Source: Leucoraja ocellata
Lineage: Eukaryota
Reading direction: 5' to 3'
Length of the DNA stretch: 64,000 nt
Assembly: GCA_036785375.1 (NCBI GenBank)
Contig: JAWMAR010000211.1
Location: 2,914,001-2,978,000 of the forward strand
Part shown: piece by piece, positions 22,052 to 64,000 of the stretch
Layout: each line of letters starts with the position of its first letter
How positions within the stretch are numbered: position 1 is the first letter of the stretch
Notes under the pieces: model-generated
Database searches by the model: none
What the model saw: the letters and a program-made list of their open reading frames with translations, nothing else
What the model was told of the DNA's origin: nothing
Program-made: the position numbers and the translations under genes

Positions 22052-25000
22052 AATAGTAAGATTAAACGAGAACTTACCAGTTTGAAGTTTGATCTGTATT
22101 TTATGAGTAGTTACGATGAGGGATTACGTGAAGAGCCCGCTCAGCACGCATGCGCGATATTCTTCAAAGCAGCGGTGTGGAATCACAGACAGACACAGTT
22201 CTTGAAATAAACATAGTAAAGAAAAGGAGACCTTAGTTATCATTGACCCATATTATTGAGGGTGGGAGCGGAGGGCACGTAATCCCTCATCGTAACTCCT
22301 CATAAAATACACATCAAACTTCAAACTGGTAAGTTCTCGTTTAATCTTACTATTTTACTTCGGAGTCACGTGAGTGACTACGTGAAGATTTTAAAGCTCT
22401 GTGATTTCAAACCGTGTAACAGTTCATACTTCACTCGCTGCCGAAGTCTTTCGAGGGAGGAAATATGTTATCGTAATCAACCATGAATCTGTTTGTAAAA
22501 ACAATAATGGTGTTATTAACAACAAGACCAAATGCTCCCTCCCCCGGGCTTAAATTATATATTTTTTTGCAGATTCTTTTTCTGCAAATGATACAGGTTC
22601 TTTCAGTGGTTTGTTATAAAAGTTTGGAACGTATACTCCCTAGACCACCCCGGTGTAGCCAGGATGTGGTCCATTGGCACGTCCATCCTCTTAGTCACTG
22701 ATGTGGATGCTGTCCTGGTGGAGTAAGATTTATACACGTTAATATGTACTCCAGCGACTCCCAGTACCTGCTTGAGCCACTTGAGAGTTTGGCTCATCAC
22801 CTGACCATAACGTTTCTTGTGGCTGACCCATAAGGCTTTTTCTCTCCCTCGAGAATTACTTATTGTGTCAATGTAGTTCAATAAGTGGGTCATGACACAT
22901 AACCGTGGTTCAGGTGGGTATGCCCGGAAATCCATGACTAGACCTGATGTTCCTGGTCTGCTCTGTTTGCCCAGTCCCTAATGGTAATGTAACATGGTGT
23001 ACTGGACCATATTGTCCAATCGTAGTGGATGGAGGAAACTGGACTCTTTGTGCTGAGACAAGGCCATCAGCATGTCCCTTCAGGGTGGGCTGTTCCAGGG
23101 TGAGGGACCTGGCTGGTGACCATCCCCTAAGGTACGTCAGGTCCACACTGACATCCCAGATTTGGGTGTACCTGGGTCTGGGGGATTAACCTCTCCTGAA
23201 TTTGATCACCAGCGGGAGTTACCCTATGGCCTGTGGTCCTGGCACCCGAGTTAAGTAGGCTGACAGAGCACTTCTGGCTGAATCCTTTTTTCCTGTCAGA
23301 ACTCCAGTACAGGTTTTTGTTGTAGTTGAATGTGTAGTTCCTGTGTTTGAGCAGTTTCTTCCCACTTCTTGATGTTCGTCAGGTATGTTCCCTAGTGGAC
23401 ATGTGACAGAATGCTGTCATCACGTTGATAGTGCTGTCTGATCCAGGCCGAGCAGTGGTCTTCCCAATTCTGCAATCCAGGCCCAGCAGTGGTCTTTTAA
23501 TGGCCATGTCCAGGACCACTGGGAACCATGACTGTGGGTTTAGTCCACTGTATTTTGCGTAGTACCCAACTGATGAGGCCCTAGTACCTATTGATGAGGT
23601 AGAAGAAGGGGAGAACATAGAGATTAGATCCCCCCCCCCCCCCCTCAATACGTGGGAATGTATCCATAGCCGCTGCCTTGAGTTTGGTTTCATGCGACAT
23701 ACATTGGTACGTGGTGCTTTAATTGGAATATAAGGAAGTTGATATCTGGTGACCATATTGCTTTGTAATCTCAGCAAATATTTTGGTTTAAATGTTCGTT
23801 TACAGTATTTAGCTCACCTGATAGGTAAGTTACTGATGGTTAAACATGTTTGACGACATACGGTTACCAATTGTTAAATAAATTGTCACATGATATCGAT
23901 TTTATTCCGCCCAAGTGGTTTGGTATATGTCACCACTGTGATGTTGTTAGTTTATAAACGAACATGCAAAACGGTGCACTACTGAGCAATATGCTTCACT
24001 AATGGAAAGTAATTTTATTATATAGCACGTTTAAAGTCAACTCGCATTGGCACCAAGTGCTAGCAAAGCTCAGTATCTATATTAGGACACACAAGAATGT
24101 TACTCAAGAAAAAAATGTGGAAAGCATACAAATACAATCCTCCTTCTCTGAAGAGCTTGAGGCTGCTACACAATTGCATTTACAAATGAATTCCATAATG
24201 ACACTGGCCACTTAAAACAACTTTGGATGTTTGCATACCATAGAAAAAGGTTAACAAACAAGAAAAAAATGGACATAACACATGTATAGAGTTTGACACA
24301 TACGTCCCCCCACAGCAGAATCAATCTCCACTGTGGAGAAGGCATCAGAAATGTTAAGTTCTCTTCCTATGAAAAACCCCGAGGTCAGGTCCATTTGTGG
24401 CCTTACAGCCAGTCCGATCAATATACTCAATAGAACATACTCAAAATTACTAACTAGGTTAATGCCCAGTGTCTAAGTGATGACAACTCCAGATAGCCCA
24501 TTTGCCACCATATTCTAGGTATGGAATATAGTTGAACACTAGTATCCAGCTCACTGGAAAGGTACAATGTTCAGTAGCTAGTAAAGCTGCTACTGATCAC
24601 AATACTCTATCACGTAGACGATAGGTGGTTGATGTGCCATAACTGATAGTATTAATGAATTCCAGATAGACAATGTTGTGGATGGGCTCAACGTAGATAT
24701 CTGGATATATGACAGAGCCCAGGCTAAATAAGTTAGTAGCTAATGCTGCTGATAGCTACATCCAAGGATAGTCTGTCATGAATATATAGGCATGCCATGA
24801 CGTAATATTCCTTAAAGTGTCAGGGCTGTTTTGATTCTGGATAGCTTCAGCTCATATTAGCCAAGTCTAGTCACATACATATGCGAGATGTGCAGTGAAT
24901 GAAAAATTGCAATATAACCATATAACCATATAACAATCACAGCACGGAAACAGGCCATCTCGACCCTTCTAGTCCGTGCCGAACACATAATCTCCCCTAG

Positions 25001-27532
25001 TCCCATATACCTGCGCTCAGACCATAACCCTCCATTCCCTTCCCATCCATATAACTATCCAATTTATTTTTAAATGATAAAAACGAACCTGCCTCCACCA
25101 CCTTCACTGGAAGCTCATTCCACACAGCTACCACTCTCTGAGTAAAGAAGTTCCCCCTCATGTTACCCCTAAACTTCAGTCCCTTAATTCTCATGTCATG
25201 CCCCCTTGTTTGAATCTTCCCTACTCTCAGTGGGAAAAGCTTTTCCACGTCAACTCTGTCTATCCCTCTCATCATTTTAAAAACCTCTATCAAGTCCCCC
25301 CTTAACCTTCTGCGCTCCAAAGAATAAAGCCCTAACTTGTTCAACCTTTCTCTGTAACTTAGTTGCTGAAACCCAGGCAACATTCTAGTAAATCTCCTCT
25401 GTACTCTCTCTATTTTGTTGACATCCTTCCTATAATTAGGCGACCAAAATTGTACACCATACTCCAGAATTGGCCTCACCAATGCCTTGTACAATTTTAA
25501 CATTACATCCCAACTTCTATACTCAATGCTCTGATTTATAAAGGCCAGCACACCAAAAGCTTTCTTTACCACCCTATCTACATGAGATTCCACTTTCAGG
25601 GAACTGTGCACAGTTATTCCCAGATCCCTCTGTTCACCTACATTCTTCAATTCCCCACCAATGCTTGCCATGGTTACCCCATCCAGGTAAATTGTGGTAT
25701 ACCCGAACCCTTATGAAGGGGTACTGAATAGTATGCATCTTTAAAGTCGATGTTTACCATAAAGTATCCTAGGAATCCATGGTAGCAGTTACAGATTCCA
25801 TAAGTGGGTATACCTGATGAATATTTCATGTGGTTTTAATCAATGATGGTGCGACATTCACCGTCTGTGGTTATTAGGGTACCCAAGGCTATATGGGATT
25901 TCTTATGACCCCTGGTATATTTCTCCAGAAGCTAGACCCTCAAGTTTATTAGAGGGAGGGTAGACCCCATGCTGTACTGGTGGCAAGATATTAATTCTAT
26001 TTGGAATATAACCACCAAGAGTGATAGCTTCCCAACCAGGTGTGATTCCCTCCCCTCTGTTAGTACAAACCCTTCACCTTTATGTGATGGTAGGAACCAT
26101 ACTTATCTGTCTTCACTGTTTCTTCGGTTTCTGGTTCCTTGTCTGTAGGGATGTTGTTTGTTGGGGGGTGGCGCATTTTCCATGGGGTCTGCTCTGGGCC
26201 CTGGCCTGAAAGGCTCACGGGATTGGCATGCAGGCCCCGAGTACTGCTGACTGGTTTAGTGTGGTGCTCATTCCAGACCCTGCCCTCTTGAGCCGAATAT
26301 TTTGGACACTTCATCCAGTTTTTTAGGCTTAGTTTGGTAAGTTAGCCAGATAGCAGGATCTGTGGCTGTGAGGTCGGCATTCTCACAGTCCTGTAAATTT
26401 CTTAAGTTGAGGGCAGGTTTTATGACTTCCTGAGAAGTTGCGGAGCATTGCGAGCAGTAGGGTCAGGTGTTTTGCCACACTACCCTGTCCCTCTGGGATG
26501 AGCATGCAAAAATGATAGCCGACATCAGGGATATCAAATTCATTTTGAGATATTTGGGTTTTTAAAAGCTATGCTCAATGTACCCCCCAATAACGGTGGG
26601 CACTTTGAGTAAATGCAATTTAGGGGAGGCGTGATGAAATCCAACACCTCATGACTACCTGTCTTGGAGAGGTTTTTTGAGAAGAACAGGTAGTAAGCTG
26701 GCCGCCAGTTGAGACTGAAAAGCCATCTCGCTAGTGGTGGAGCCACATAGCGGCCACACCCAGCAGCTCTTCCTGATCCTGTACCTCAGCATACTCCTCT
26801 TCAGCCAGTGACCCCTCTTCTTGACCAGCCCAGCTCTGGTCCCCATCGATCCCTCGACAAGGGAGATGGCCAGTGTGGAAACACTGGAGTGGGAGTGTTA
26901 AGCTCCCTTGGCGGACTTGCCCCTGCTCCTGAGGCAAGTCTTGCCGGAGTTTTTAGTTCCATGACCTTCCTCTGGCTTGGAGAAACAGATACTCTTGTTT
27001 CTTGTTTGAAGTGTTGATTCCATCTTCCATGTTTGTCTCCAGCCTGAGGTTGGTCCTGACCTTGCTGTTAGAGGCTGTCTGCTGTTTTTGGGCGGCATTT
27101 CAGCGGTTCTCGGGCGGCGAGTATCCTTGTCGGGAGTCTGCAGGGGTGCCGGCCGGTTTTTAAATTTTCCTCCAGTCCGCTGCTGTTGGTCAGAGCTGTT
27201 TTAGCGGACTGGGCATCAGCGCAGCACCCGTGTCTGTGGACCGCAGCGTGTGCGGTCCCGTTGCCGCCTCTCCCCCCTCCACTGTCGGCTCCTTTCCTGG
27301 AGTTGAACGGGGGCCGCTTCCCTCTGCTGCTTTGCTCCCCCTGGAGCAAAAACAAACGCAAAGTCGCTAGTTTAAACTGAAGGTAAATTCTTACCTAACG
27401 GTCCTTTCCTTCAGGCTTGTAGTGGGAGCTGCCCACTCCCGCTATGTCGCTGTTGCGTGCGTGACCGCAATGTCGCGCATGCGTGCTGAGCGGGCTCTTC
27501 ATGTAGTCACTCAAGTGACTCCGAAGTAAAAT
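22052..27532 (-). mobile_element. DIRS1-type element copy B (second family, heavily decayed pol), within the DNTT intron between 21819 and 28311
   Basis: ITRs at 27473-27505 and 22125-22157; ICR at 22276-22388. YR remnant (EPRLCVMTHL, SHKK, STRTASTS, DHILATPGWS) at about 22600-23450. AAT at both junctions. Confidence 0.92.
24913..25655 (-). mobile_element. CR1 LINE 3' part nested in DIRS copy B
   Basis: ORF 24997-25671 RDLGITV...RPILEYGVQFWSP...LERRRLRGDLIEVFK; (TATGGTTA)n tail. Confidence 0.92.
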
Positions 27533-27806
27533 GTTCTCCAAACAGTCCAAACAGTTACTCCAGCATTTTCAGGCTATCTTCTGATTAATGTTATGTAATG
27601 GGTAAAGTGGCAACGGAGGGTAAACATTTACAGCAAAATTAATACTTCTTATGTCTAATTTAATGAAGCTGATCACATGGTATATAAAACTATAGAAATT
27701 CTGAAATGTAATTTTGTGTGACCCAGAGTTAACATGTTAATAACCATTTATTTTCAGTTGGAATAAGCCTGCCTGGGAAAGTTTGTATATTTATTCTTAA
27801 GACTTA

Positions 27807-28194
27807 AGGGCCTGTCCCACGAGCATGCGACTGTATGCGGCGAGCGCGACCTAACGTGGTCGCTTGAGCCGTACAGCCTCGCAGGGCCGGTCCCACTTCG
27901 ATCGCCGGAGCCGTATGGAGTTGTGCGGAGCTGGTCCCGACAACGCACGGGCTACGAAAAACTGGCACTGTCCAAAAACTCCACGTGGCAACGGCCTGCC
28001 GGCCTGCAGCCGCGTTGAGGCCGTACCCACCGCCTCGACGGGTGTGCGCAGCGTCTCGACACCGTACACAGCATCTTGACAGCGTATGCCTTCGCTCGAA
28101 CTTCACGTCAACTCGTACGGGATCACTCGACCTCCGCGCGGCCCGGTTTGATTGCGCTCACCGCATGCAGTCGCATGCTCGTGGGACAGGCCCT
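27807..28194. mobile_element. Harbinger-like MITE, about 115 bp upstream of a DNTT exon
   Basis: TIRs of about 34 bp: agggcctgtcccacgagcatgcgactg and cagtcgcatgctcgtgggacaggccct. Confidence 0.75.
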
Positions 28195-28310
28195 TTGGTT
28201 ATTTTTGATATTTTGAAGCATTTATTAATATACTGTAAGAATGTATATAATGGAGCTATGAACCTTAACAGAGCAATTACCTCCAGTCAATGTAAATTAT
28301 TTTACTGCAG

Positions 28311-28434
28311 CTATTCACCAGTGTCTTTGGTGTTGGTGTGAAGACAGCTGACAAGTGGTATGGACTAGGCTTTCGGACTTTGGAGGAAATAAAAGCAGCA
28401 AAGGATATTACGTTTACCAAAATGCAGAGGGCAG
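28311..28434 (+). CDS. DNTT: TdT exon (exon 6 equivalent; HhH), LFTSVFGVGVKTADKWYGLGFRTLEEIKAAKDITFTKMQRA(G)
   Basis: Bounded by tttactgcAG| and |GTaata; 124 bp, phase 0/1. Carries TdT-type LFTSVFGVG and FT.MQ.AG. Confidence 0.94.
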
Positions 28435-28716
28435 GTAATATTTGGAATAGTGAATTGTACATATAATGTGCACAGTATTAACACAATGGGCAAAACCATA
28501 CTCGTCAATGATTATGTTTATTTCAATTCTCCCTTTGCTTCTTCCCTGCTTCTATATGGATTGTGATTAATATGTTGACACCAAGGCAAAGGTAAACTCA
28601 AATTTGTTGCAGTAGCATCTGTGTGTTGAGAATCGTGGCAGGTTGGTTTTGAATTTCCTTCCTAATCTTGATACAAGAATGTCATAAACTGATGCTATGA
28701 GTTTGCCTTTGTTTTC

Positions 28717-29290
28717 ATAGAAACATAGAAAATAGGTGCAGGAGGAGGCCATTTGGCCCATCGATTCATTGTGATCATGGTTGATCATCCACAATCAGTA
28801 ACTCATGCCTGCCTTCTCCCCATATCCCTTGATTCCACTAGCCCCTAGAGCTCTATTTAACTCTCTTTTAAATTCATTCAGTGAATTGGCCTCTACTGCC
28901 TTCTGTGGCAGAGAATTCCACAAATTCTGGGTGAAAACGTTTTTTTCACATCTCAGTTTTAAATGGCCTCCCATTTATTCTTAGGCTGTGGCCTCTGGTT
29001 CTGGGCTCCCCCAACATTGGAATTTTTTTCCTGCATCTAGCTTGTCCAGTCCTTTTATAATTTTATACATTTCTATAAGACTTCCTCTCATCCTTCTAAA
29101 TTCCAGTGAATACAAGCCCAGTCTTTCCAATCTTTCCTCATATGACAGTCCCGCCATCCCGGGAACTAACCTCGTGAACCCATGCTGCACTGCCTCAAAT
29201 AGCAAGGATGTCCTTCCTCAAATTAGGAGACCAAAACTGCACACAATACTCCAGATGTGGTCTCACTGGGGCCCTGTACAACTGCAAGAG
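28717..29290 (-). mobile_element. CR1 LINE 3' part (resumes at 29812-29840 after the Rex1 insertion)
   Basis: GLSYEERLERLGLYSLEFRRMRG peptide; (tatgtttc) tail. Confidence 0.88.
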
Positions 29291-29811
29291 TCCATCTGTC
29301 TCCTCAGATCATGGTGAACTTCTACCGCTGCACCATCGAGAGCATCCTTACCAACTGCATCACAGTATGGTATGGCAACTGCTCTGTCTCCGACCGGAAG
29401 GCATTGCAGAGGGTGGTGAAAATTGCCCAACGCATCACCGGTTCCTCGCTCCCCTCCATTGAGTCTGTCCAAAGCAAGCGCTGTCTGCGGAGGGCGCTCA
29501 GCATCGCCAAGGACTGCTCTCACCCCAACCATGGACTGTTTACCCTCCTACCATCTGGGAGGCGCTACAGGTCTCTCCGTTGCCGAACCAGCAGGTCGAG
29601 GAACAGCTTCTTTCCGGCGGCTGTCACTCTACTCAACAACGTACCTCGGTGACTGCCAATCACCACCCCCCCCCCCCCCCCCCGGACACTTATTATTATT
29701 TATTCAAATCGTTTGCTATGTCGCTCTTCAAGGGAGATGCTAAATGCATTTCGTTGTCTCTGTAGTGTACACTGACAATGACAATTAAAATTGAATCTGA
29801 ATCTGAATCTG
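29291..29811 (+). mobile_element. Rex1/Babar LINE 3' end inserted in CR1, possible 5-bp TSD aagag
   Basis: FYRCTIESILTNCITVWYG...HPNHGLFTLLPSGRRYRSL...NSFFP; (TGAATC)n tail. aagag at 29286-29290 and 29812-29816. Confidence 0.85.
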
Positions 29812-30481
29812 AAGAGGACCTCTTTACTCCTATATTCACATTTTCATAGAACATTGAACAGTATAGCACAGAAACAAGACCTTCGACCCCCAATGTCTGT
29901 GCCAAACATGTGCCTGTACCTGCATTCAATCCACATCCCTGCTTTCCTTGCACATCCATGTCCTTTGATCATCATCGGCCACCCTTCCCTAATAATGTTA
30001 GTGGAGTCTCAAACGTTGGCCTATTTTCTTCTCATCCATCTCTATGGCCTTTCACATTAGCAAAAACAGAAGAGCTGCTCGAGGAACCCAATGGATCTGA
30101 CAGCATTTCTGGAGGGAAATCAGAGCTGGTTGACATTGCTGGTTAAGATGCTTCATCTACACTGAAAAAGAAGAGGGGAGGTAGCCAATATAATGGTGTA
30201 TGGGAGGGGGAGGGCAAGAGCTAACACAATCAGGTGCAGAGGGAACGAAGGGTAAATATGTATTGTACCTATTCTAGCCACGTTCCAGCATCTGTATCTC
30301 TTGTGCCTTATTTCACCAGGACTGGCTTGCTGAAGTTGACATTAAGCTGACATTGGCAAGAACACATCAGAATTCTTTACGCGCTCTCCGCTTTTCTGCT
30401 CTAGAAAATCTTCCATGTAGACGTCGGGATTAATAGACTTAGTGAAATCAATAATGTGCTGGTGTATAAGTAGCAGTGTTA

Positions 30482-30790
30482 AGGGCCTGTCCCACTGTAC
30501 AAGTTTACCCAAGAGCTCTCCCGAGTTTAAAAATAAATCAAACTCATGGTAAGTACGTAGAATGTACGTAGCGGGTGCGTCGGAGCTCGGGACGCCTCTT
30601 AGCAGCTTGTAAGGCTAACGACTGGTACTCGGGAAACGAGGTAAGCTCGGGAAGATTTTTCAACAGTGCGGAGAGTGTCCACGAGAGTCCCCGAGTACCT
30701 ACGAACGGCTATTACCGTAATTCTCCGAGGTCTAATCAGAGGAAACTCGGGAGAACTCGTGAATTACCTCGTACAGTGGGACAGGGGGCT
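30482..30790. mobile_element. Harbinger-like MITE
   Basis: TIRs agggcctgtcccactgtac and gtacagtgggacagggggct. Confidence 0.7.
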
Positions 30791-31275
30791 TAACTGTGGG
30801 AGTGGGCTTGCTCTTGGTTTTTGGAATCTGGCTGTTGGCACCATTCGTCTGAGCTGGCCTCAAACAATGACACTTGCTCAGGGTTGAGATCGGTTTTAAC
30901 TTGTAATGAGCTCACACTAATGAGGCTTAACATCTTGTGCAAGATGGCAGCTTTCATTTTAGTTTACTTTATATTATCACATGCGCCGTCGGTACAGTGC
31001 ATAGTTTTTATTGCATGTGATTCAGTCACAGAAAAGACTGTATATGATTACAATCAAGCCACTACAGTGCACAGATAAAGGATAAAAGGTGCAAGATAAA
31101 GTACGATTAAAGATAGTTCAAAGATCTTCAATGAGGTAGATGGGAAGTCAAGACTGCACCAACTGGTGAGAGGACAGTTCAGTTGCTGATAACAGTTGTG
31201 AAGAAACTTTAAAATGGAATGAGATAGGATATTAAAAATGGAATGATATTAGACTATAACATGTTCCATGACTGA

Positions 31276-31605
31276 AAGCCCTGTCCCACGGTCCGAGTTC
31301 ATGCCAAGAGCTCTCCCGAGTTTGCCCTGATTCAAACTCGGAGATTTACGGTAATGGCCACTCATTGGTACTTGGGGCTCTCGTGGACATTTTTCAACAT
31401 GTTGAAAAATCTTCACTAGTCTTCCCGTGCTTACCTGCCGTTAGCGAATCTTCCCGAGTACCTGCCGTTAGCCTTACGAGCTGCTAAGAGATGTCCCCGA
31501 GCTCTGACGTACCCGCTATGTTCATTCTCCGTGCTTACCACGAGTTTGATTTTTTTTTAACTCGGGAGAGCTTTTGGAATGAACTCGTACCATGGGACAG
31601 GGCTT
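31276..31605. mobile_element. Harbinger-like MITE (same family, opposite orientation)
   Basis: TIRs aagccctgtcccacggt and accatgggacagggctt. Interior is the reverse complement of the 32081 copy. Confidence 0.72.
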
Positions 31606-32080
31606 TAAGGAACATAATATGATCTAGTTTGTCTGTATATAGCTCTTCATGTTTTTGTTCTGATATTAGCTTTAATTTGATATGTCGTGCCTTCAATTTC
31701 ACCAAACAAAAACACAGTCTTCTGATAGTTTAGTTGACTTTATTCATAGAAAGATCTGATAAAAACAAGAAAATATCACATAACTTTGCTCAATAATTAA
31801 CAATATACTCAATTTGTCATTTGTCATTCTTTGACCAAATCAAAAGCAAATCAATTGTTATAAATATTTAATTGGATATTCTGATGGAATATCATTATAA
31901 CAAGGCGTAATACTAATAATAAAAGAAAAAATAGCTATTGCCAGTAACTTCAAAGATGTCACCTCCAGACATCAGTCAGCGCCATATGATTTGTTACCTT
32001 CTCACCGATGTTCATAGTTCGACTAAAATGTTTCTTCTCAACTAAACTGCCTTCAATTGCAGACACCTAAAAGAGACTAA

Positions 32081-32378
32081 AAGCCCTGTCCCACTGTAAG
32101 AGTTAAAAAAAAAAATCAAACTCGTGGTAAGCACGTAGAATGTACGTAGCGGGTGCATTGGAGCTTGGGGACATCTCTTAGTGGCTCTTAACGCTAACGG
32201 CAGGTACTCGGGAAACGCGGTAAGCTCGGGAAGACTCGTGAAGATTTTTCAACATGTTGAAAAATGTCCACGAGAGCCCCGAGTACCGACGAGCGGCCAT
32301 TACCGTAAATCTCCGAGTTCGAATCAGGGCAAACTTGGGGAGAACTCTTGAATGAACTCGTACAGTAGGACAGGGCTT
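32081..32378. mobile_element. Harbinger-like MITE
   Basis: TIRs aagccctgtcccactgta and tacagtaggacagggctt. Confidence 0.72.
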
Positions 32379-36491: not shown

Positions 36492-36525
36492 AACCTTATT
36501 ATTTGTGCTATTTATTTTTAGTGTG

Positions 36526-42512: not shown

Positions 42513-42727
42513 CTTCTGTATCCCTGCAATAAACACAAAAAGCTGGAGTAACTCAGCAGGACAGGCAGCATCTCTGGAGAGAAGGAAGGCATAGGTGACG
42601 TTTTGGGTCAAGACCCTTCTTTAGTCTGATGAAGGGCCTCAATCCTGCTCTCCAGAGATGCTGCCTGTCCCACTGAGTTACTCCAGCTTTTTCTGTCTAT
42701 CTTAGGATCCATTAGAAGCTGGGTCAG

Positions 42728-47506: not shown

Positions 47507-48776
47507 TAGCAATGTAACAAAATTTTGAGATTTTAAAAATCAACTGCAATTTATCCCATCAGAGAATGCATTAAAAGAAGTTTAATTTGGCACCTAATTC
47601 ACTTTCATATCTTCAGTATTAAACAAGATATGGCCATTTTCATAATCTTGTTCCCTTTTGCTTTTCCCTTGACGTCGTACGTCACGCGTGAACTTCCCGC
47701 GGACTTCGCTTGAACTTCACATCGCTCGACCTCCGCGCGGCCCCCGCTTCTGGTTTGGTTGCGCTCGCCGCATGCAGGTGGGACCGGCCCTGTACGGTGA
47801 TCACTCGACCTCCGCGTGGCCCCCGCTTCCGGTTTGGTAGCGCTCGCCGCATGCAGGTGGGACCGGCCCTGTACGGTGATCACTCGACCTCCGCGCGGAC
47901 CCCGCTTCCGGTTTGGTAGCGCTCGCCGCATGCTGGTGGGACCGGCCCTGTACGGTGATCACTCGACCTCCGCGCGGACCCCGCTTCCGGTTTGGTTCAT
48001 GGGACAGGCCCTTAAGTATCCAAATAACAAACTAATCCCATTCACACAAGAATTCACAATATAACATGATTTTTAAATCTCACTGTCATGAACATATGCC
48101 AGATGGAAGGGATTTAATGTTTAATTCCCATAAACAAATCCAGAAACTTCCACTTTCAAAATAATCAAAATTATTATTTTTTGCACAATAAATGTGGCTC
48201 AAGCTGTTGAGTACATTTCGTATAAAAATATTGATTATGGATGGACTATTCACAAAATATTGATGATTTAGATGCTCTTATGACATGAATGTCCAATTAA
48301 AATAATTTTAATCATTTTGCATGATAAATAAACCGTATTGTATTGTTGTATTGAGTGGGTGTTTCTGGAACGTGATCGATTGGAATGTTGCGGTTGCGAT
48401 GAATTTGACCCCAATATCGGCAAGAAAGACACTGCCGGTTCGTATGGGGCCCAAATCGCATTTTCGCAACGTAAAATTAGATTAAAGCCACCCCAAGAAG
48501 CAAGATTATATGTAAAATAGACGACTTGCCCTTTCTTTTGTCCTCTTATTGCGATCCGTGACGCTGCAGGCGTTGAGGGCTTTTGAAGTCACGTTTTAAA
48601 CTATTAAATTCTACAACGATTAAAAAAAAAAACAGGGTAGTCCGATCGATTTTTCTTCATCGACTCGCAGCCCGAGAAAATCCCCCCCCCCCCCCCCCTC
48701 TAAAGGCACCAAAGTCATGCACACGGCCAGTGGCAGAACTGCAGTGCCGCTGAATGTAGGTTTTGTAACATCGCTA
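47507..48776. mobile_element. Non-autonomous hAT-like DNA transposon with 16-bp TIR and 7-bp TSD
   Basis: TIRs tagcaatgtaacaaaa and ttttgtaacatcgcta; attaaag at 47500-47506 and 48777-48783. Confidence 0.75.
47722..47995. repeat. 79-bp tandem repeat (about 3.4 units) derived from the end of a Harbinger-like MITE
   Basis: tcgacctccgcg at 47726, 47805, 47884 and 47963. TIR gggacaggccct ends at 48012. Confidence 0.9.
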
Positions 48777-51290: not shown

Positions 51291-51299
51291 TGGATTTGG

Positions 51300-51625: not shown

Positions 51626-52300
51626 GTCTGAAGAAAGGTCTTGACCCGAAATGTCACCCATTCCTTCTCTCCAGAGATGCTGCCTGTCCCGCTGAGTTAC
51701 TCCAGCATTTTGTGTCTACCGATTTAAACCAGCATCTGCAGTTCTTTCCTACACAATGACTCTGAACTGCATCTGCCACAGTGACTCAAGCTCAGCTTGG
51801 GATTGGCACCTGGAACTCAGTCCTGATATCCGTTAGGCTCGGGAGTCTAATCGCAGCATAGTGAGGTAGTGGGGGACTGTGCAGAGGCAAATACTTCCCA
51901 TGATCTTTGAGCTGCTGTTCCCATCAAGCTCCTCCTATTCATCCCCTGGCAAGGGGCTTGGGGCGAACTAAATGACCATGGCACTGTGATCGCCTTGTGA
52001 ATTCCAAGTTCCATGGCTTCTTTTGCTTTGATGGGAAAATCACTTTACTGTATCAGTGTACTACTGGATGTCCACCTTTCCTTTGCCTATCTCAATTATC
52101 CATTCTACTGAAGACAGACCCAACATTTTGTAGTAACTCAGCGGGACAGCCAGCATCTCTGGAGAGAAGGGATGGGTGACATTTCTGAATTAGGGCCTCA
52201 ACCCAAATTTTACCCACTCCTTCTCTCCAATGATGCTGCCGGTCCCACTGGGTTACTCCAGCATTTTGTCTATATTTTTGGTGTAAACCAGCATCTGCTG
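51626..52300. mobile_element. Penelope-like pLTR (51626-51755) and inverted pair (about 52115-52300)
   Basis: Matches the Penelope consensus seen elsewhere in the window. Confidence 0.72.
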
Positions 52301-52334
52301 TTCAAAGTCATTGTTTACAAGGACAAGAGCACTT

Positions 52335-54939
52335 TTTTTTGGGGGGGGGATTTTTTAAAATCAAAAAATGTATTCAATGATTTAAAAAATAATATTTACA
52401 CCACAATAAAACAAGCCAGAGCCCACCACCATAATACAATACAAACATATATCCATAGTAAACTATTGTACAATGATGATACAATCCTTATTGAGGATAC
52501 ATTCTACATCCTGCGGAGCCCAGCGGTCCCGGAACTCCCTCAGGGTGCCCACAGGCAGGGCGTATTCCCTTTCTAATCCCACCCGGGCACAGACGTAACC
52601 CTGGAAAAGGGGCAGGCAGCTGGCCCGGGTAGAGCCCTCTACCGCCTGGCGCCGTGACTCGCGGATGGCCAGCTTGGCCAGGCCCAGGAGCAACCCAACC
52701 AGGACATCTTCAGCCCTACCCTCTCCCCTACGCACAGGGTGTCCAAAGATGAGGATGGTGGGTGAAAAATGCAGCCAGAAGGCAAGGAGCAGCCCCTTTA
52801 GGTATTGAAACAGTGGCTGCAGCCTCACACACTCCATGTACACGTGATACACAGACTCTTCCAGCCCGCAAACATGGCAGACGGCTGGCGAGTCTGTGAA
52901 CCGTGAGAGAAACAGGTTGCAGGGAACACCTCGGTGCAATACCCTCCACCCCAGGTCCCCAATGTAGAGGGGAGAATCCCTGTGTAGAGGGACCACCACT
53001 GGGGACCCCCCTCGCGACTGGAAGGCAACACCGACCGCCACTTGGTGTCCGGACGGTGGACCAGGGCGAGGAAATGCAGGGTTTGGAGGAGGAGCCCGTA
53101 CAGGACACGCCTCCCTGCGTCTCGGAGGGAGGTGAAGGGTGTCGAGGAAAGGCGGCTCAAATTGTGTGGGACCGGCTCCCGGGATGGATTACGGTGCCTG
53201 GGTCCGATGAGTACTTCCGGCTGAGTGGGGGCTTGCTCAACCACAAGTACTCCACACGTTTGAGCCCCCCCGACACCCAGTGGCGCAGGACAAGGACCGG
53301 CTGCTCTCACGCCCGGGCCGTCACCCTCCGCCGATGGAGGTGGGGCCCGGTCAACATCAACCAGACTCTGAACAAGTCCCTGTAGAAGCCGGGCATCCCC
53401 ATCAGTACCACATGGCTGACGCCCACCATCGGGATCCGCGTACCTCCTTGAAGGCAGCGGCTCCGTTGGAAAAAGTGCGTCGCCAGCATGTGCCACCTGG
53501 GAGGATGCCCTGAGTACAGGTATCTCTGCACGGTCCTGAGGCGGAGAGCCGCCAACTTGGTGCGAATGCACACCAGCGACTGACTGCCCTCCTCGATCGG
53601 GAGACTCGGGACCGCTGTAGATACCCAGTGCTTTCCGTTGACCCAGAAGAAGTCCACCAACTTCTTCTGGATGATCCCAGCAAAGGTGGCTGATGGGACC
53701 AATGTGGTCAATCTGTACCAGAGCATGGAGGCCACGAGTTGGTTAATGACCAACACCCTGCCCCGGTAGGAAAGCACTCTGAGGAGACCCGCCCAGCGTC
53801 CCAGCCGGGTGACGACTTTCACCTCCAGCTCCTGCCAGTTCGCCAGCCAGGCCTCCGCACCGGGACTCGGGTAGACTCCCAGGTAGAGGAGGTGCGTGGT
53901 ACTCCATGTGAAAGACCTCATCGCCTCCGGGAGGGAGTCCACCTGCCAGGGACCCACCAAGAGTCCAGAACATTTCCCCCAGTTGATCCTGGCAGAGGAG
54001 GCGGCCGAGAAGACTCGTTGGCACTCACGCATCCTCTGCAGGTCGACGGGGTCGGTGACCATGAGGAGCACGTCATCGGCATAGATCGAGAGGACCACCT
54101 CCATGTCCGGCTCGCGTAAAACCATGCCCGTCAACCTCCTCCGAAGCAGACTAAGGAATGTCTCCACGCAGATGGCGTATAGTTGGCCAGACATGGGGCA
54201 TCCCTGACGTACTCCTCTGTGGAAGGGAATGGGGGCCGTCAAGGATCCATTGAATTTCACGAGGCACTCTGCGGTGGCGTATAAAAGTTGGATCCGGGAC
54301 ACAAAGTGCGATCCGAACCCAAACGCCCGCAGAGTCCTCAACAGACACTCGTGATCCACCCTGTCAAAAGCCTTCTCCTGGTCGAGGGAGAGAAAGGCAG
54401 TGGGTACACCGGTCTCCTGAGCCAGGTAGACCAGGTCCCGGACCAGATGGATATTGGCCTGGATGGACCGGCCTGGGACCGTGTAAGACTAGTCGGGGTG
54501 GATCACTTGAGCCAGCATTGGGCCCAGGCAGTTTGCCATTGTCTTGGCAAAGACCTTGTCATCGGTACAGAGGAGGGAGACTGGGCGCCAGTTTTTTAGA
54601 CGGCGGAGATCGCCCTTCTTGGGCGGAAGGACCACGACAGCCCTTCGCCAAGACAGGGGTATCTCTCCGGTCGCCAGGCTCTCCCTCAGTACCATGGTGT
54701 AGTCCTCCCCGAGGATCCCCCAGAAACTGCGGAGCAACTCTGCTGTCAGTCCATCCAGGCCAGGGGATTTGCCCAGTTCATCCAGTGTCAGGGGGGCATC
54801 CAGATGCTCGGCACCCTCCGGGTCGACCGTGGCTAGACCTTCTGCACTCGTCCCCGCCGGAGCTATCTGGTGAGAACAAGGTCCCATAAAAGGAACGAAC
54901 TGCTGCGTTAATGTCCTCTGGTTCAGTGACGGAGGAGTC
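52335..54939 (-). mobile_element. Tx1/L1-clade LINE, 5'-truncated ORF2, with a 15-bp TSD
   Basis: Peptides KSPGLDGL, WRPVSLLCTD, RGVRQGCPMSG, YADDV, C..CG..ESVYHVYMEC. aggacaagagcactt at 52320-52334 and 54940-54954. Confidence 0.93.
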
Positions 54940-57900
54940 AGGACAAGAGCACTTGGTGGGTGATGCTATAACACTCATTCGATTGTCAAAATTGATGGGT
55001 TAGTAATCAATAGACTATAGACAATAGGTGCAAGTAGGCCATTTGGCCCTTCGATGTGATCATGGCTAATCATCCTCAATCAGTACCCCGTTCCTGCCTT
55101 CTCCCCATATCCCCTGACTCCGCTATCTTTAAGAGCCCTATCGACCACATACTGTATGAATAGGGTGGTGGTTTGCCATGTTCGTTCACCTGCATATACA
55201 CATCGCCATGTTAAACCAGACCATTGATAGTACATTAAGTGCTGGAGCAACTTGGTGGGTCAGGCACCAACTCTGGAGGACTGATACTGTAGGTGATGTT
55301 TTGGGCATGCACCTTCTTCAGTCTAAAAAAACGTTACTGACCGAAACCTTTACCTATCCATGTTCTCGAGAGAAGCTGCCTGAACTTCTGAGTTACTCCA
55401 GCACATTGTGTTTTTATTGTGTGCAAACCGCGACTGCCATTCCTTCTGTCTCAACTGATAGTACATTTCTGAAACTTGCCGGGAAAGCGCATTAGTAAAC
55501 TGGGTTCTTCAATGCGTTTCGGCCCGAAATGTTGCCTAATTTTTTCATTCCCTGCTGCACCCGCTGAATTTCTCCAGCATTTTTGTCTACCCTGTGTTCT
55601 TCAATAAACCTGTTCCCAGCTTATGATTTACCATTCCCCTTTAACAAGTTGAATATGTGTTTAAATGTACGAATAATCAAACAACCTATCATTTATTGAC
55701 TGCCATTCACACTCAGTGTGTACCAAAATACATTAAGAAATTATGCATTTCTGAATCTGATTTACTGGTGGAATGTAGAAACTACAGCAGCCAATTTACA
55801 GACTTCAAGTGCCCATAATTAACAGCTCATCCAAAAGATGAATGCAAACCCACAGTGCAGCACCAGAGTGTCAGCACATATCCTGCGCCTTTTGCTGGAG
55901 TGGGACGTCGATCATCATTTTTCTTCAGTCAGATGGGAAAATCGGACCCCAATGAGCCATGGCTGAAACTAAAGCGTTGCCAAATATGGAAATAAAGTGA
56001 CTTTGGGACATTATGTTGTGCTGGTGGAGATTTTCCAGTGTCTGCACTCAGGCAGGAGAGAATGCTGATCAAAATGCGTGAAGCATGTTTGTATGATTGT
56101 TCAGGAATTAGGGAAGAAAGACAAGATTCTGAGCAGCATGTTTCGGCAGAATCCGAATATCTCCAAGGTGGGACATACGGGTAATTAGTATTCTGAGGAA
56201 ATATCATCAACATAATTTAATCTAGCGGTAAAATGAGAAGAAACAGCAATTTGTGGTGTCTCTGGTTATTCATGCAATGTTTTGCAAAAACATAACAGAT
56301 GCTGGAGACAATAATCTACCTGTCTGAACATGGACACACAATTGCTGGAGTAACTCCCTGTCTAACTCCCTTTAATTATTAACTATTACAAGTAAGTAGA
56401 TTTGTTTGAATGATATTCCCAGTTGACATTAAGCATTGCAACACCAGACCCATGCCTGATTCACTTTAAACATCCCAGATATGTACAGTTTAAGGAAAAC
56501 TAGTTTTCAAAATATCAAAAATTGCAAGAATGGACATTCATAATGGAAGGGAAATGTAAAATTCATTATTATTCCAAAAGCAATTCTAATTACAAAATTG
56601 TTGGTTGAAACGTCTTTTTATTTTATCATGGAAATAAACATAACTCCTATGAATGTCAACAAACATCACAAACCACATTTGCATCCCATTAGAATGCAAA
56701 AGGATGCCTTCAGTGGGAAACTGAAAATCCATAATAACTCTGCCAGACTATCTGTATGAGGTCCACATGGGTTTCCTTTTTAATTAGAAGATACTATGAA
56801 ATTGTTTGGCTTCAGTCATAATCAAGAAATGATTACAACAGTTTCAACATATACGAGTACAGAAATACTACCATAATATGCTTCCACAATGACAACCTTA
56901 ATGAAAAGATAAATGTCAGTAATTGGCAATCTATCTAACATGCAAATGTCAAGTGTCAACCAAAGTTCTGCAATTAACAATAGAAAACAGTGCCAAAGAC
57001 TTAGCAGATCAGACAGCATTTGTGGAGAGAGAAGGAATGGTTCAGGTCTTTCGAAAGTTGATCAGAACTGGGAACTGTTGGAGCTGCAGAGTATTGCTTT
57101 TATTTTGATTTCTATCATCTGTAGTATTTTACTTCTGGTTTGAAACAACTTGTAAGACTTAAGAATGGTCATAAAACAGCTTTTTATAATTTTTGAATAT
57201 CGAAACTTTACAACAGAAAAATGATACCTAATTATACAAAGGTATTTAAAAACAAACTTTGATAAACCTGCATACCAAACACCCTTGCTCCTGTTCTGCA
57301 TATTTATGCCAACAAATACCTACTGAGCTTGGGTAGATTTTCAACACAAAATGCTAGAGTAGCTCAGGCAGCATCTCTGGAGAGAAAGAATGGGTGACGT
57401 TTTGAGTCTGCATGGGTAGATTTTAACGGTTATAGATCATTAGGTATATTGCGATCAGCATGTTTGTGCAGGATGCCAAAATAAAATTAATCGATCCAGC
57501 AAGAGTGAATAATTATGGTGGGAAACTTTTGCCACCATTGAAGATAATCTGGACAATTTGTGACAGCGATAGAATGTCATATAAAATACAGTGTCATATA
57601 TTGAAGATGTTTATCTGCTGACATTTAATATGCAAGGACATCAATCTTAAAGTAAGCCAGACATTTCAGTTCTTCCAGAAAACATATTCAATATTTATTG
57701 AAGAGTCATATGGCAGCAAAAAATGGAATTAATGAATGTAACTAGTTATCATAATATGCAAAAGTCATGAGCAGGACTACATAGCCTAGCATCATAGACA
57801 TCAGGATCAAATAGAATCTCTAGTAATTGCTATCTTTCTGGTTCTGTGAAAGAGACAACAGGGAATATGTTATGCTTTGCTGTCAAATCTGCAAGCAGGG

Positions 57901-58285
57901 CTGTAACTACAATTCCACTTTTGCCGCAAAAATGTGTTTGCTGTGTAAAAAAAATCCTGAGTTGCATATTGTGAAAGCACGTAATGAGGTCTAAAAATAC
58001 CTCATGGCAGTGTGGTGTTACAGAAGGAAAGTCGGTCGGATTTAAGGTTAAACCCAAGAATCTCTCGTAAGCAGCAGTTATGATCTCAGTGTTGCTGCCA
58101 GGGAAAGTGGCAGCAACACAGAGTACAGCCTCATAAGAAAGGAGAGACGGTCGGTCTAGTCTGAGAGCAATTTTATGGAGGTCGAGAGTTTATAATCCTG
58201 CTGGGATTTCAGTTGGAGGAAGACTTCTAGTTAGCAAAGGAGAAAGAGAGAAAAATGCTTTAAAAATATGAATGCTTATAAAACT

Positions 58286-58880
58286 AAGTTTAGTTTAGAG
58301 ATACAGTGTGGAAACAGGCCCTTCGGCCCACCGAGTCCGCACCGACCGCGATCCCCGCACATTAACACTACCCTACGTGCATTGGGGACAATTTACACTT
58401 ATACCAGGCCAATTAACCTACAAACCTGCACATCTTTGGAGGAAATCGAAGATAGAAACATAGAAACATAGAAATTAGGTGCAGGAGTAGAACATTCGGC
58501 CCTTCGAGCCTGCACCGCCATTCAATATGATCATGGCTGATCATCCAACTCAGTATCCCGTACCTGCCTTCTCTCCATACCCCCTGATCCCCTTAGCCAC
58601 AAGGGCCACATCTAACTCCCTCTTAAATATAGCCAATGAACTGGCCTCAACTACCCTCTGTGGCAGAGAGTTCCAGAGATTCACCACTCTCTGTGTGAAA
58701 AAAGTTCTTCTCATCTTGGTTTTAAAGGATTTCCCCCTTATTCTTAAGGTCCCGGGGAAAACCCACAAAGGTCGCAGGGAGGACGTATAAACTCTGTACA
58801 GACAGCACCCGTGGTCAGGATTGAACCCGTGTCTCTGGCGCCGTAAGGCAGTAGCTCTACTGCGACACCACCATACCGCC
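58286..58880 (-). mobile_element. HE1-like SINE interrupted by a CR1 3' end (about 58452-58748)
   Basis: SINE halves flank a CR1 piece carrying an (atagaaac)n tail. Confidence 0.82.
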
Positions 58881-59679
58881 CCAATCACTGTTATCAAAAT
58901 ACTTACTAACGATATGTTATAACAACTAGTTTTTCTTGTACACAACAGAAATATTCCTAATAGGGAATATTTAGTTTGTAAGGTAATATTTAGATGAACA
59001 AATAATAATACTGTTAAGCAAGCCAAATGCTTACTGAAGGCATTTGGAAAGTAAATGCCAGACAAATATGCCAGGTCTATTTAAATGTTCATAGACTTTT
59101 GCATTTTAATTACTTCTGAGAGCAATTTCATCCACACAATTGGATTTCAGTTTGATTCATAAAAAGTAAACGATGTACTGACCAGAAATGAAACCATTTG
59201 ACCTTTAGTAAGTCAAAACTAACTTCCAATGATTGGAATAGAAAAAAAACATGAAAAGATTCTATTAAGATTGAAAGCCTTTTCAGAGAACATAACATGA
59301 TGTTATGCGGAAAGAATTTTAAATATTTTAAAGGCAAGTTGTTGATAAAATATTTACCAAAACTGAACTTTGGAACTGTTGGAAAAGAAATTGCTGCAGA
59401 CAAGGAAGTAGTTTAATAATTTCAAAGGTTTGATAACGATAACAGTGATTCATAATAAATCACTGCAAAGCAGGGGCTAAATTGGAACTGCACCTTCAGA
59501 CTATTTAAAGAAAGCATTTTTTTTTTTTTCTGACCACGCTGAGTTGCAACTGTTCATTATTTTGACCCCACCTTCATCCGACAGCCTTTTTCTAAACAGG
59601 CTCTAATCTAACGTTTAAAATTGCTTCCATTACAAGAGTCCTTACTGGGAACCAAACACTGGTATAGCAACTGAAATTG

Positions 59680-59960
59680 GCAAACACAGGCCCTTTGGGC
59701 CAACTTGCCCACACTGGCCAACATGTCCCAGCTATGCTAGTCCTGCCTGCATTTGGTCCATATCCCTCCAAACCTGTCCTATCCATGTACTTGTCTAATT
59801 GTTTTTTAAACATTGGGATAGTCTCAGCCTCCTATCTCCTCTGGCAGCTTGTTCCATACACCCACCACCACTTTGTGCAAAAAATCTACCCCTCAGATTC
59901 TTATTAACTCTTTTCCCCTTTACCTTAAACCCATGTCTTCTGGTCTTCGATTCACCTAAA
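59680..59960 (-). mobile_element. CR1 3' end
   Basis: FKKQLDKYMDRTGLEGYGPNAG peptide. Confidence 0.8.
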
Positions 59961-60455
59961 TTCAAGTTCATAGAGTTATACCTGCAAAAACCAGCCACAC
60001 AACACCACTCGTACAGTCTCCATAGCCTGTTATGCCTTGGCAATTCAATTGCTCATTCAGATTATCTTGTCTTGAAGATAAACACAAAATGTAGCGTGAC
60101 TCAGCGGGACAGGCGGCATAGAATGAATGGGTGACGTTTCTGGTCGAAACACTTCCTCAGTGTTGGTTCATAACTTCACCAAGCCCTCAGGCAAAGCGGC
60201 TCAGATTGCAAGCACCCTCTCGATTAATGAGAAATCTTCTGCAGTTCCCCTCCAAACTGCTAATTCCTCACTAATGCCTTCTGGTTTTAGATACCAAAAC
60301 CATGAGGAACAGCCTCTCACTATCTTACCTTTGGGCCACAGAGTCCTACCTTAATCAGAGGAACATGACATGTCATCTCGTGCTGATTTGGTAGCACTCC
60401 AGCTTCTCAATCAGGAGATTGTGTTGAAGTGCCCACTCTGGACACTAGCCACAAA

Positions 60456-63400
60456 AATAGTAAAATTCAATGAGAACTTACCAGTTTGAAGTTTGATCTG
60501 TATTTTATGAGACATTACGATGAGGGATTACGTGAAGAACCCGTCCAGCACACATGTGCGGCATTCTTCAAAGCAGCAGTGTGGAATCATAGAAACACAC
60601 ACTAATTGAAATAAACATAGTAAAGACAAGGAGAACTAAGTTATCAGTTGATCTCTATAATTGAGGGTGGGAGCGGAGGGCACGTAATCCCTCATCGTAA
60701 GTCCTCATAAAATACAGATCAAACTTCAAACTGGTAAGTTCTCGTTTAATCTTACTATTTTACTTCGGAGTCACGTGAGTGACTACGTGAAGATTTTAAA
60801 GCTCTGTGATTTCAAACCATGTAACAGTTCATACTTCACTCGCTGCTGAAGTCATTCGAGGAAGGAAATATGTTATCGTAATCAACCATGAATCTGTTTG
60901 TAAAACAATAATGGTGGTATTAACAATAACAAGACCAAAATGCTCCCCCGGGCTTAAATTATATATTTTTGCAGATTCTAAAACTTTTTCTGCAAACGAT
61001 ACAGGTTCTGCCAGCGGCTTGTTATAAAAGTTTGGAATGTATACTCCCTAGACCACCCCGCTGTAGCCAGGATGTGGTCCATAGGCACGTCCATCCTCTT
61101 AGTCACCGATGTGGATGCTGCCCTGGTGGAGTAAGATTTATACACGTTAGTATTTACTCCAGCAACTCCCAGTACCTGCTTGAGCCACTAGAGATAGTTT
61201 GGCTCATCACCCGGCCATGAGGTTTCTTGTGGCTGACCCATAAGGCTTTTTCTCTCCCTCGGGGATTTCTTATTGTGTCGATGTAGTTCAATAAGTGAGT
61301 CATGACACATAACCGTGGTTCAGGTGGGTATGCCCGGAATTCCATGACTGGACCTGATGTTCCTGGTCTGCTCTGTTTGACCAGCCCCTGAATGGTAAAT
61401 GTGACATGGTCTGGTGTTATAACCATATTGTCCAATTGTAGTAGATGGAGGAACTCGATTCTTTGTGCTGAGATAAGGCCATCAGCATGACCGTCTTCAG
61501 GGTAGGCTGGCTGTTCCAGGGTGAGGGACCTGGCTGGTGACCATCCCCTAAGGTATGTCAGGACCACACTGACATCCCAGATTTGGGTGTCTGGGGAATT
61601 AGAGTTGAATATGCCTCTCCTGAATTTGATCACCAGTAGGTGGTACCCTATGGCCTGTTGTCCTGGTGCCTGAGTTAAGTAGGCTGACAGAGCACTTCTG
61701 GCTGTATTGATGGCGCAGTAGCTGAGTCCTTCATTGTGGTGAAGACCTGCCAGGAACTCCAGTACAGGTTTTGTTGTAGTTGAATATGTAATTCCTGTAT
61801 TTGAAAAAGTATCTTCCCACTTCTTGATGTTCGCCAAGTATGTTCCCTAGTGGATATGCGATGGGATGCTGTCATCGTGTCGATAGTGCTGTTTGACAAT
61901 CCAGGCCCAGCAGTGGTCTTCCCAATTCTGCAACCCAGGCCCAGCAGTGGTCTTTTCAAATCTGCAACCCAGTAGTTTAATTTATCGTGGCATGGGTGGC
62001 TTATGCCTGAAACTGGGTGAGTTGATAAGTCTGGGCTGCTGGGAAAATCATTAGGGTTTTGATGACCATGTCGAGGACCATGACTGTGGGTTTAGTCGGG
62101 TACTATCAAAATACTTGAAGCAGAGTCCATCTGTATTTTGTGTAGTACCCGACTGATGAGGCCGTAGTACCTGACTGATGAGGTAGAAAAGGGGAGAACA
62201 TAGAGATTAGATCCTCCCCCCAGTTCAGCGGGAATGTATTCATTGCCACTGCCTCAAAGTTTGGTTTCATGCGACATACATCAGTACGTGGTGATTTAAT
62301 TGAAGGAAATCGATATCTGGTGTTCCATATTGCTTTGTAATTTCAGCAAATACTTCAGTCTGAAGAAGGGTTTCTGCCCGAAACGTCACCTATTTCCTTC
62401 GCTCCATAGATGCTGCTGCACCCGCTGAGTTTCTCCAGCATTTTTGTGTACCTTTGGTTTAATATGTCTGTTTACAGTATTTAGCTCACCTGGTAGGTAA
62501 GTTACTGATGGTCAAATATGTTTGACGACATACGGTTACCAATTGTTAAATAAATTGTCACATGATATCGATTTTATTCCGCCCAAGTGGTTTGGTATAT
62601 GTCACTACTGTGATGTTGTTAATTTATAAATGAACATGCAAAATGGTGCACTACTGAACAATATGTTTTTGCCAATAGGACGTACTCAATATTTCCAACT
62701 AGGTTTTATGCCCAGTGTCTATAGTGATGACCACTCCAGATTAGTCCATTTGCCACCATGTTCTGGGTATGGGTTATTTTGTTTAAACACTAGCACCTTA
62801 GCTCTAATGGAAAGGTTCAAGTTAAGTAGCTGGTAATGCTGCTACTAATTCCCAATTACTCTTGCCACTTTGTTGAATGGTCGGTTGATTGTTACCATTA
62901 ATTGTTACAGGTTGTGCCATACGCTGACTCTCCTTATGGCAATGTTATAGATGAGTGGGTAGAGTTAATTGAATACCAGATAGTCAATAGTTGTGGATGG
63001 TGTCAACGTTGATTTATCTGGATAGTATGACAGAGCCCAGGCTAAATAAGTTTTAGTAGCTAATGCTGCTGATTTAGCTATTTCTGTGGATTTGTCTGTC
63101 GTTAATATCATAGAGACATGCCATGACGATATGTTCCTTAATAGTGTCAGGGCTAGTTTGAATATCTGGAAACAGTTTTGGCTCATATTAGCCATTGTCA
63201 ATAATTTATACTGCCATAGTTACCCCATCCAGGTAAATTGTGGTATCTCTGAAAATCTTTTATGAATGGCTACTGAATAGTATGCATCTTTTAAGTCGAT
63301 GTCTACCATAAAGTATCCTAGGAAATCCATGGTTAGCAGTTACAAGTTTCCATAAAATGTGTATACCTGGTGAAAATACTCAAGTGGTTAAGTCAATGAT

Positions 63401-64000
63401 GGTGCGACATTCACCATCTTTGGGTTTTTTGGTACCAAAGGTTCATATTAGGCTTCTTTAATAATAATACATTTTATTCATGGGCGCCTTTCAAGACTCT
63501 CAAGAACACCTTACAAAATTTAGTAAACAGAATACAAAACATGTAAGTGGAATGAAACAAAATAAAAAATAACGACACAAAAAAAAATAAAATAGTAAAG
63601 ACATCAACAATACACAATTCAAAGACACAATTCAAAGACACAATTCAAAGAGAGAGCAGCGACAGCTAATCATGCCATATATACTTTATGACCCCTTGTA
63701 TATCTTCTCCAGTTAGCTAGTCCCTCATGTACTTTTTTAGTGGGAGGGTAGACCCCTTTGGGGTGCACGCTGAACTGGTGGTAAGTTTCTTAATTCAATT
63801 TTTATCCTTGAATACTTGGTATATAACTACCAAGTGTGATAGTTTTTCATGTTTCCAACCCAGGTGTGATTTCCCCCCCCCCCCCCCCCCCCCCCCCCTA
63901 TTAGTACAAACCTTTCACCTTTTATGTGATGGTAGGAACCATACTTATCTGTCTTCACTGTTGTTTAGTGGTGTGTTCATTTCTTCGGTTTCTGGTTCCT
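60456..64000 (-). mobile_element. DIRS1-type element copy C (same family as copy B; 5' part beyond the window), with a Penelope insertion (about 62355-62455) and an L2-like tail insertion (about 63458-63680)
   Basis: Terminus AATAGTAA at 60456; ICR at 60681-60793; YR reading frame 61154-61837; high similarity to 22052-26130. Confidence 0.92.

Follow-up and report, generated by a model that had tools for sequence, protein, structure and literature searches.

Two insertions of a coding-dead, probably trans-mobilized DIRS1-type lineage in Leucoraja ocellata

The 64,000-nucleotide stretch of Leucoraja ocellata contig JAWMAR010000211.1 analysed here (the window) contains three DIRS1-type copies, A, B and C, all on the minus strand. 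Copies B and C are independent DIRS1-type insertions. We consider it probable, at roughly three chances in four, that they are two insertions of a wholly non-autonomous, coding-dead and eroding DIRS1 lineage that was mobilized in trans. Disabling changes common to the two copies are found in RT, RNase H, the pol/YR junction and the tyrosine recombinase (YR), which argues that the lineage was already dead before either insertion, or that the dead state passed from one copy to the other; lesion sharing is scored here in two copies.

ATT-bounded insertions and their architecture

Homology between copies B and C stops exactly at the ATT end, and the flanks differ from the first base outside ATT. 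The 1-kb outer flanks align with a score of 20, compared with a mean of 21 for shuffled sequence. The initial annotation had likewise held that the flanks differ and that the pair is no simple segmental duplication. ATT, with no longer duplication, is present at both ends of A and B and at the single visible end of C, and is the commonest end trinucleotide among the DIRS1-like elements described in PMC3266345. Inverted terminal repeats (ITRs) are present in copy B, and likewise in A, and the ICR is complementary to both ends at a 3-bp junction, as expected of DIRS1-like elements. Remnants of RT, RNase H and the methyltransferase domain (MT), followed by YR, lie on one strand and are collinear with P0056 (RVT_1) and P0049 (PF00589 above cut-off). 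Open pol and YR frames with catalytic residues are absent from B and C, and from A as well; a Pfam search of 13 window frames, the copy C open frame among them, gave no family above cut-off.

Table 1. Coordinates of the DIRS1-type copies and their parts in the window
Feature	Coordinates	Strand	Remarks
Copy A	10380..15164	-	DIRS1-type, of another family; mild decay; ATT at either end; inside SINE
Copy B	22052..27532	-	full-length DIRS1-type element; ATT at either end
B right terminus	22052..22161	-	extension + right ITR; inverted arms
B ICR	22276..22388	-	complements of both ends joined across 3-bp junction
B YR remnant	22582..23481	-	8 frameshifts, 3 stops; HSTR to YSTR
B MT remnant	23500..23783	-	broken, part deleted
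B RNase H remnant	23784..23996	-	stop, Asp>Asn, +1, NW*; 38-nt deletion immediately downstream
B insertion	23997..24427	none	430 bp, not in copy C
B RT remnant, 3' part	24428..24863	-	full of small indels relative to copy C
B nested repeat	24864..25665	none	237-codon open frame at 25000-25710
B RT remnant, 5' part	25666..26098	-	DFKDAYYSV motif
B gag-region remnant	26100..27450	-	longest stop-free frame 108 codons
B left terminus / left ITR	27469..27532	-	
Copy C	60456..64000	-	same lineage as copy B; 5' part beyond window end
C ICR	60681..60797	-	
C YR remnant	60966..61939	-	7 frameshifts; HSTR to YSTR; -1 before catalytic Tyr
C open frame	61154..61846	-	not a functional YR; stops short of HxxR and Tyr
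C SINE-like repeat	62355..62452	none	short, high-copy; at RNase H/MT deletion junction
C RNase H remnant	62455..62668	-	low-indel island common to copy B
C RT remnant	62673..63940	-	many frameshifts and stops; insertion at about 63461-63686

The termini and ICR had been described as near-perfect, and for copy B this holds. Its ICR matches the 3' end at 97% over 79 nt (arms 22052-22130 and 22276-22354) and the 5' end at 95% over 37 nt, with ATT at the junction, and its ITR arms (22117-22161 and 27469-27513, 45 nt) are 91% identical. The ends of B are young, with 2/79 and 2/37 mismatches to their own ICR. Copy C does not fit the description, as its 3' end differs from its own ICR at 6 of 81 positions; the copy C figure covers the 3' end only, because the 5' end lies beyond the window. 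Copy C therefore looks older than copy B. On the element strand the copy B target reads gaac-ATT-gttc, with 4-bp inverted arms around the core (window 22048-22054 and 27530-27536). This symmetry may be chance, since the copy A target does not have it.

The interior of copy B is heavily interrupted. Its RT 3' part differs from copy C by 28 indels in 432 columns, and the 430-bp insertion has no match elsewhere in the window or to the retrieved proteins. The nested 237-codon frame, which we take to resemble the end of a CR1-type LINE, gave no Pfam match. The gag region of copy B has no match among the retrieved proteins; that of copy A does match homologues. Elsewhere in the window, six stretches match their own reverse complement at 68-83% (1550-1744, 2445-2697, 17348-17516, 17837-18021, 42529-42700 and 52107-52276), several of them related to one repeat family, as MITE-like or head-to-head repeats. 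A tandem repeat with a period of about 79 bp and 94-96% identity lies at 47721-47996 and is related to 28115-28170.

Copy A belongs to a separate family. Its YR is 47-50% identical to those of B and C, and it resembles P0058 of Amblyraja radiata (64-73%); a search with its gag/RT frame returned distant relatives only. Over the outer 79 nt, A and B are 92% identical. Because A and B/C share ends and ICR (window 10380-10738 against 22052-22409) while their YRs are about 50% identical, the end sequence is kept across DIRS families of this genome. Copy A is itself broken, with three frameshifts and one stop in pol and the same numbers in YR. An intact element of the A type had been suggested as the partner of B and C. 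These lesions and the YR divergence show that copy A is not that partner, and we rejected it as their helper on the same grounds. The SINE that copy A splits is presumably HE1-type. Its halves (window 10193-10379 and 15165-15285) match adjoining parts of other copies, for example at 15781-16082, which fixes the copy A target site, with ATT at the joint.

Lesions common to copies B and C

The RNase H regions of B (23784-23996) and C (62455-62668) are nearly identical, as first noted, differing by 11 transitions and one indel in 213 columns. The motif in both is HV(R/H)L*.NNIT: it contains a stop, and Asn replaces an Asp that is invariant in 40/40 intact pol proteins. Both have the reported +1 shift, which leaves 48 nt before GGIK where intact relatives have 47, and the NW* stop is the same in the two. 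A 3-nt loss, a second stop and an upstream +1 are further lesions common to this domain. A deletion directly follows the last RNase H motif; it removes 38 nt from B and about 36 from C, whose junction is occupied by a 98-bp repeat. Both copies have multiple breaks in RT and in MT. Of these, two in RT and one in MT are strictly common, while the others adjoin B/C indels and so are not classed as common or private; all pol disruption counts are lower bounds, since the aligner loses track in RT. At the pol/YR junction, B and C have in common a 34-bp tandem duplication.

For YR, the frameshifts and stops in Table 1 were counted against intact P0049. Strictly common -1 frameshifts fall at P0049 residues 12, 41, 166 and 314, the last directly preceding the catalytic Tyr316. 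A fifth shift lies at residue 261, where the intact sequence has 9 nt, C has 8 and B has 6, with a further 2-nt loss in B. In both copies HSTR has become YSTR (His280 to Tyr). Position 280 is His in 30 of 38 intact YRs, Gly in six, a gap in two and Tyr in none, R170 and K198 are invariant in 38/38, and Y316 is Tyr in 34/38. We take these sites to be the catalytic R-K-H-R-W-Y positions of tyrosine recombinases, an assignment with which conservation among the 38 intact YRs agrees. The HSTR motif is variable among the elements covered in PMC3266345, so it is the shared frameshifts, and not the His-to-Tyr change, that carry the argument. As judged from its reading frame, the recombinase of the common source of B and C is dead.

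This result bears on a different model, in which a pol-dead master element supplied its own YR and was paired with an A-type element, as its complement or its parasite. That model was built on a YR region said to be far less decayed than pol, with a 227-codon open frame at 61154-61837. The frame exists, closed by a stop, and copy C is indeed stop-free over about 230 codons. However, because the frame crosses a +4/-1 pair, the helix preceding the first catalytic Arg is read out of frame (TLEQPAYPEDGHADGLISAQR). The open frame also departs from the YR frame at a common -1 near 61189, before HSTR and the catalytic Tyr. It is open only through a 4-bp duplication at 61505 that offsets a common -1 at 61473. 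This duplication is missing from 88%, 84% and 74% of the depth in three public runs and is thus close to private to copy C, which makes the frame an accident.

Disruption rates differ between the copies. Per 100 aligned codons, copy C has 2.2 disruptions in YR and 5.3 in pol, which favours the YR-supplying master, but in copy B the rates are alike (3.8 and 4.1), the pol values being lower bounds. In any functional sense, YR is not the better preserved region; it is as broken as pol in these two copies. Nor does a B-C comparison point to purifying selection on YR. Synonymous changes make up 23 of 66 substitutions (0.30 expected, p=0.25), and the whole-YR pN/pS of 0.59 (0.35-0.99) is compatible with the neutral simulation (0.72, 0.44-1.29). 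The catalytic half has a weak synonymous excess (15/34, p=0.042, one of six uncorrected tests), which becomes 9/26 (p=0.26) without CpG-type sites. A BLAST protein search, in a database poor in vertebrate repeats, found no intact B/C-type YR above 64% identity, and a PDB sequence search with P0049 gave one chance match. An earlier stage of the lineage may have had a dead pol and a live YR. With at least four common frameshifts plus His280 to Tyr in YR, and with copy A broken and of another family, a source that still supplied its own recombinase to such a pair is the most improbable of the explanations we considered.

Uneven decay, the RNase H island and related sequence in public runs

The non-autonomous lineage that we favour is decaying unevenly. 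Indels between B and C, per 100 aligned bases, number 0.3 in the ends and ICR, 0.5 in RNase H and 1.6-2.9 in YR, and rise to 3.0 in the 3' UTR, 4.0 in MT, 4.2-6.5 in RT and 5.1 at the RT start/gag end (heterogeneity p=9e-6, for nine blocks drawn after the alignment had been seen). Substitutions are also heterogeneous along the element (p=0.003). Five other repeat pairs in the window have 0.35-2.25 indels per 100 aligned bases. Outside RNase H, 64 of 79 coding indels are gaps in B (unpolarised), although the ends of B are the younger. Such a pattern, with young ends around an eroded interior, is expected if a dead element is copied repeatedly.

The RNase H island itself (210 bp) has 5.2% substitutions and one indel, where the rates of the other coding blocks predict 8.3 indels (post hoc P=0.002). 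Its divergence is about what post-insertion decay from one source gives. Possible readings are a segment that recombinant sub-lineages came to share recently, a tract of gene conversion, and a cis-signal. The last of these, in which the island is kept free of indels as a cis-acting signal for mobilization in trans (packaging, priming or second-strand site) in addition to the termini and ICR, seems to us doubtful. RNA folding of the island gave z-scores of -0.61 for C and -1.55 for B, which leaves a structured signal unsupported, and comparison of the island with the ends in copy B revealed no notable complementarity. If it were true, the dead lineage would act as a naturally occurring deletion scan for what DIRS elements require in cis. 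According to PMC7192593, the primer of DIRS-1 reverse transcription is unknown, and a cis-signal in the island would matter the more.

Related sequence is present in 20 listed public runs from four organisms, each holding part of the copy C sequence (at best 0.56 of sampled words). Four of 24 listed runs were compared over 60540-63450 at 85% likeness, and the figures from that comparison are among the 40 of 439 substitutions, 12 of 83 indels and 15 of 153 joints listed. Depth in these runs is not copy number; it includes sister families, and the loci are unplaced. In run X1, depth over YR is 1e5-8e5 against 62-119 for most of the listed lone pieces, so sequence related to YR is very abundant. 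Contigs that skip the copy C SINE and have the exact copy B junction letters, and hence carry the 38-nt deletion, have depths of 2738 in X1 and 853 in X7, compared with 62-119 and 19-64 for most listed lone pieces. Two more variant junction contigs reach 1246 (X1) and 719 (X7). This multi-copy depth of a pol-breaking junction supports amplification after death, as far as such contigs can indicate it.

Other lesions recur as well. Contigs that lack one base at 61806, the B-type YR -1, account for 61%, 30% and 94% of the local depth of X1, X3 and X7 (shares based on 1-2 contigs per run), and the same state is found in 6 of 7 RNA reads. At the -1 before Tyr, one X7 contig with a depth of 49 aligns gap-free; as it is possibly an orthologue, this is weak support. 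Multi-copy internal deletions recur in 2-3 organisms, that from 61994 to 62142 in three. None of the YR lesion sites common to B and C is among the 12 of 83 indels listed. This would fit fixation, but we gave it no weight, as the listing has no stated ranking and gaps near contig ends may be clipped. Of the 40 listed substitutions, 5 are unscorable in B, 30 are private to C and 5 have B and C together against the majority. The B/C letter at 60868 makes up no more than 0.1% of depth. At 62602, within the RNase H island, 92-100% of depth carries an intact-like Ala. B and C are thus a small branch, and most of the related sequence may come from less damaged relatives.

Depth over the ICR (60638-60833) is roughly 10-20 times the YR depth in all three DNA runs; the termini of all families fall there, and end-only miniature derivatives could contribute. 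In RNA run X22, 61618-62303 (MT/YR start) has a strong first-mate-minus excess while the SINE stretch is balanced, and 97% of reads over that interval run on into unlike sequence. As to expression, no RNA run is found among the listed runs with copy C sequence. The ICR-junction pattern had 0 matches in metagenome contigs and viral contigs.

These data allow a second explanation to be weighed, namely that intact copies inserted separately 38 kb apart and that ectopic gene conversion later spread dead sequence within the element bounds. No dead master would then have to be mobilized in trans. The close spacing of B and C, the rare alleles found in these two alone (60868 and 62602), an 88-column perfect run in RNase H and the uneven substitution divergence along the element would all be accounted for in this way. 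Yet the common lesions extend over some 3 kb, beginning in RT and reaching the end of YR, and in two organisms the depth of the B-type deletion junction is tens of times that of lone pieces. Moreover, the 5.2% divergence of RNase H is close to the sum of terminus-versus-ICR decay (roughly 1.7% + 3.7%), not lower. Conversion may have added short tracts; that it produced the shared dead state is unlikely.

Still less likely is a segmental duplication of one dead copy, which the ATT-bounded homology opposes, or an assembly or polishing artefact behind the likeness or the indels. Many indels are of 1-2 nt and often in homopolymers, and the incomplete coverage of copy C words by even the best public runs leans the same way. 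Against an artefact, the nested 237-codon frame in B is free of indels, which argues against local assembly noise, its 400-bp pair elsewhere has 0.75 indels per 100 bp, and independent short-read contigs reproduce the copy B junction letters.

Mobilization in trans and known systems

Together, the common pol lesions and the ATT-bounded homology support the initial proposal as far as a pol-dead source, inserted independently and amplified in trans. We hypothesize that a dead source copy would be transcribed, and that intact relatives would provide RT/RNase H, gag and YR in trans, the B/C-type element giving no enzyme. The termini and ICR, restored in each cycle, would be all that end-repair and junction formation need, and YR would insert the circle at an ATT. 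Over repeated rounds, small indels would wear away the interior, no longer of use, in sub-lineages whose ends remain intact.

The closest open-frame relatives of B and C are P0040 (LOC129695449, Leucoraja erinacea) and the Logan proteins P0056 and P0001/P0049. Their frames are open, unlike those of B and C, P0040 being a single gene model that ends before HSTR. YR residues 326-562 of P0040 are 72% identical to copy C and 67% to copy B. The helper would most likely be an intact member of the P0040 clade; the A family, at 50%, is a less likely candidate, although the ends common to A and B/C allow cross-mobilization by it. In the experiments described in PMC7192593, the ICR proved essential and the RT of DIRS-1 acted in trans, whereas no complete retrotransposition in trans was obtained with a truncated DIRS-1, a failure blamed there on marker splicing. 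Non-autonomous DIRS-order elements and a trans-acting DIRS-1 RT are thus already published. The B/C lineage would back, from genomic data, the laboratory finding that DIRS proteins work in trans, and is otherwise a modest addition, one more non-autonomous retroelement lineage.

Copy B has the layout of the DIRS1-like elements with ATT ends described in PMC3266345, with ITRs, an ICR split at a 3-bp junction, a right extension, and RT-RH-MT followed by YR. Unlike the elements described there, B and C have every reading frame killed by common lesions; the word 'autonomous' does not occur in the main text of that paper. A literature search, mostly of open-access papers and with Repbase outside its scope, found no described full-length ITR/ICR DIRS1 element with an eroded interior in skates or cartilaginous fish. 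Among Xenopus DIRS-like Repbase families, interrupted ORFs or incomplete repeats are counted in 36/75 of X. tropicalis and 13/20 of X. laevis (PMC9210276). These degenerate families have broken ORFs like B and C, and the main passages of that paper do not address trans-amplification of lesions.

The nearest functional parallels are TOC1 of Chlamydomonas, given in PMC9940879 as a non-autonomous DIRS retrotransposon, and SIRE, given in PMC6681497 as a truncated non-autonomous derivative of VIPER. Like B and C, both are YR-retrotransposon derivatives without working proteins that depend on autonomous copies. They differ in having split direct repeats (PAT and VIPER types; PMC3266345, PMC6681497), whereas B and C have ITRs and an ICR and are full-length, with an eroded yet recognisable gag-pol-YR interior. 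Outside this group, TR-GAG elements, which keep one ORF (PMC4350172), are the published analogue of a YR-keeping element; B and C keep none. LTR elements differ in superfamily and integration chemistry, but those described in PMC8969392 as non-autonomous, with an interior made non-coding by mutation, resemble B and C in keeping their ends while the interior decays.
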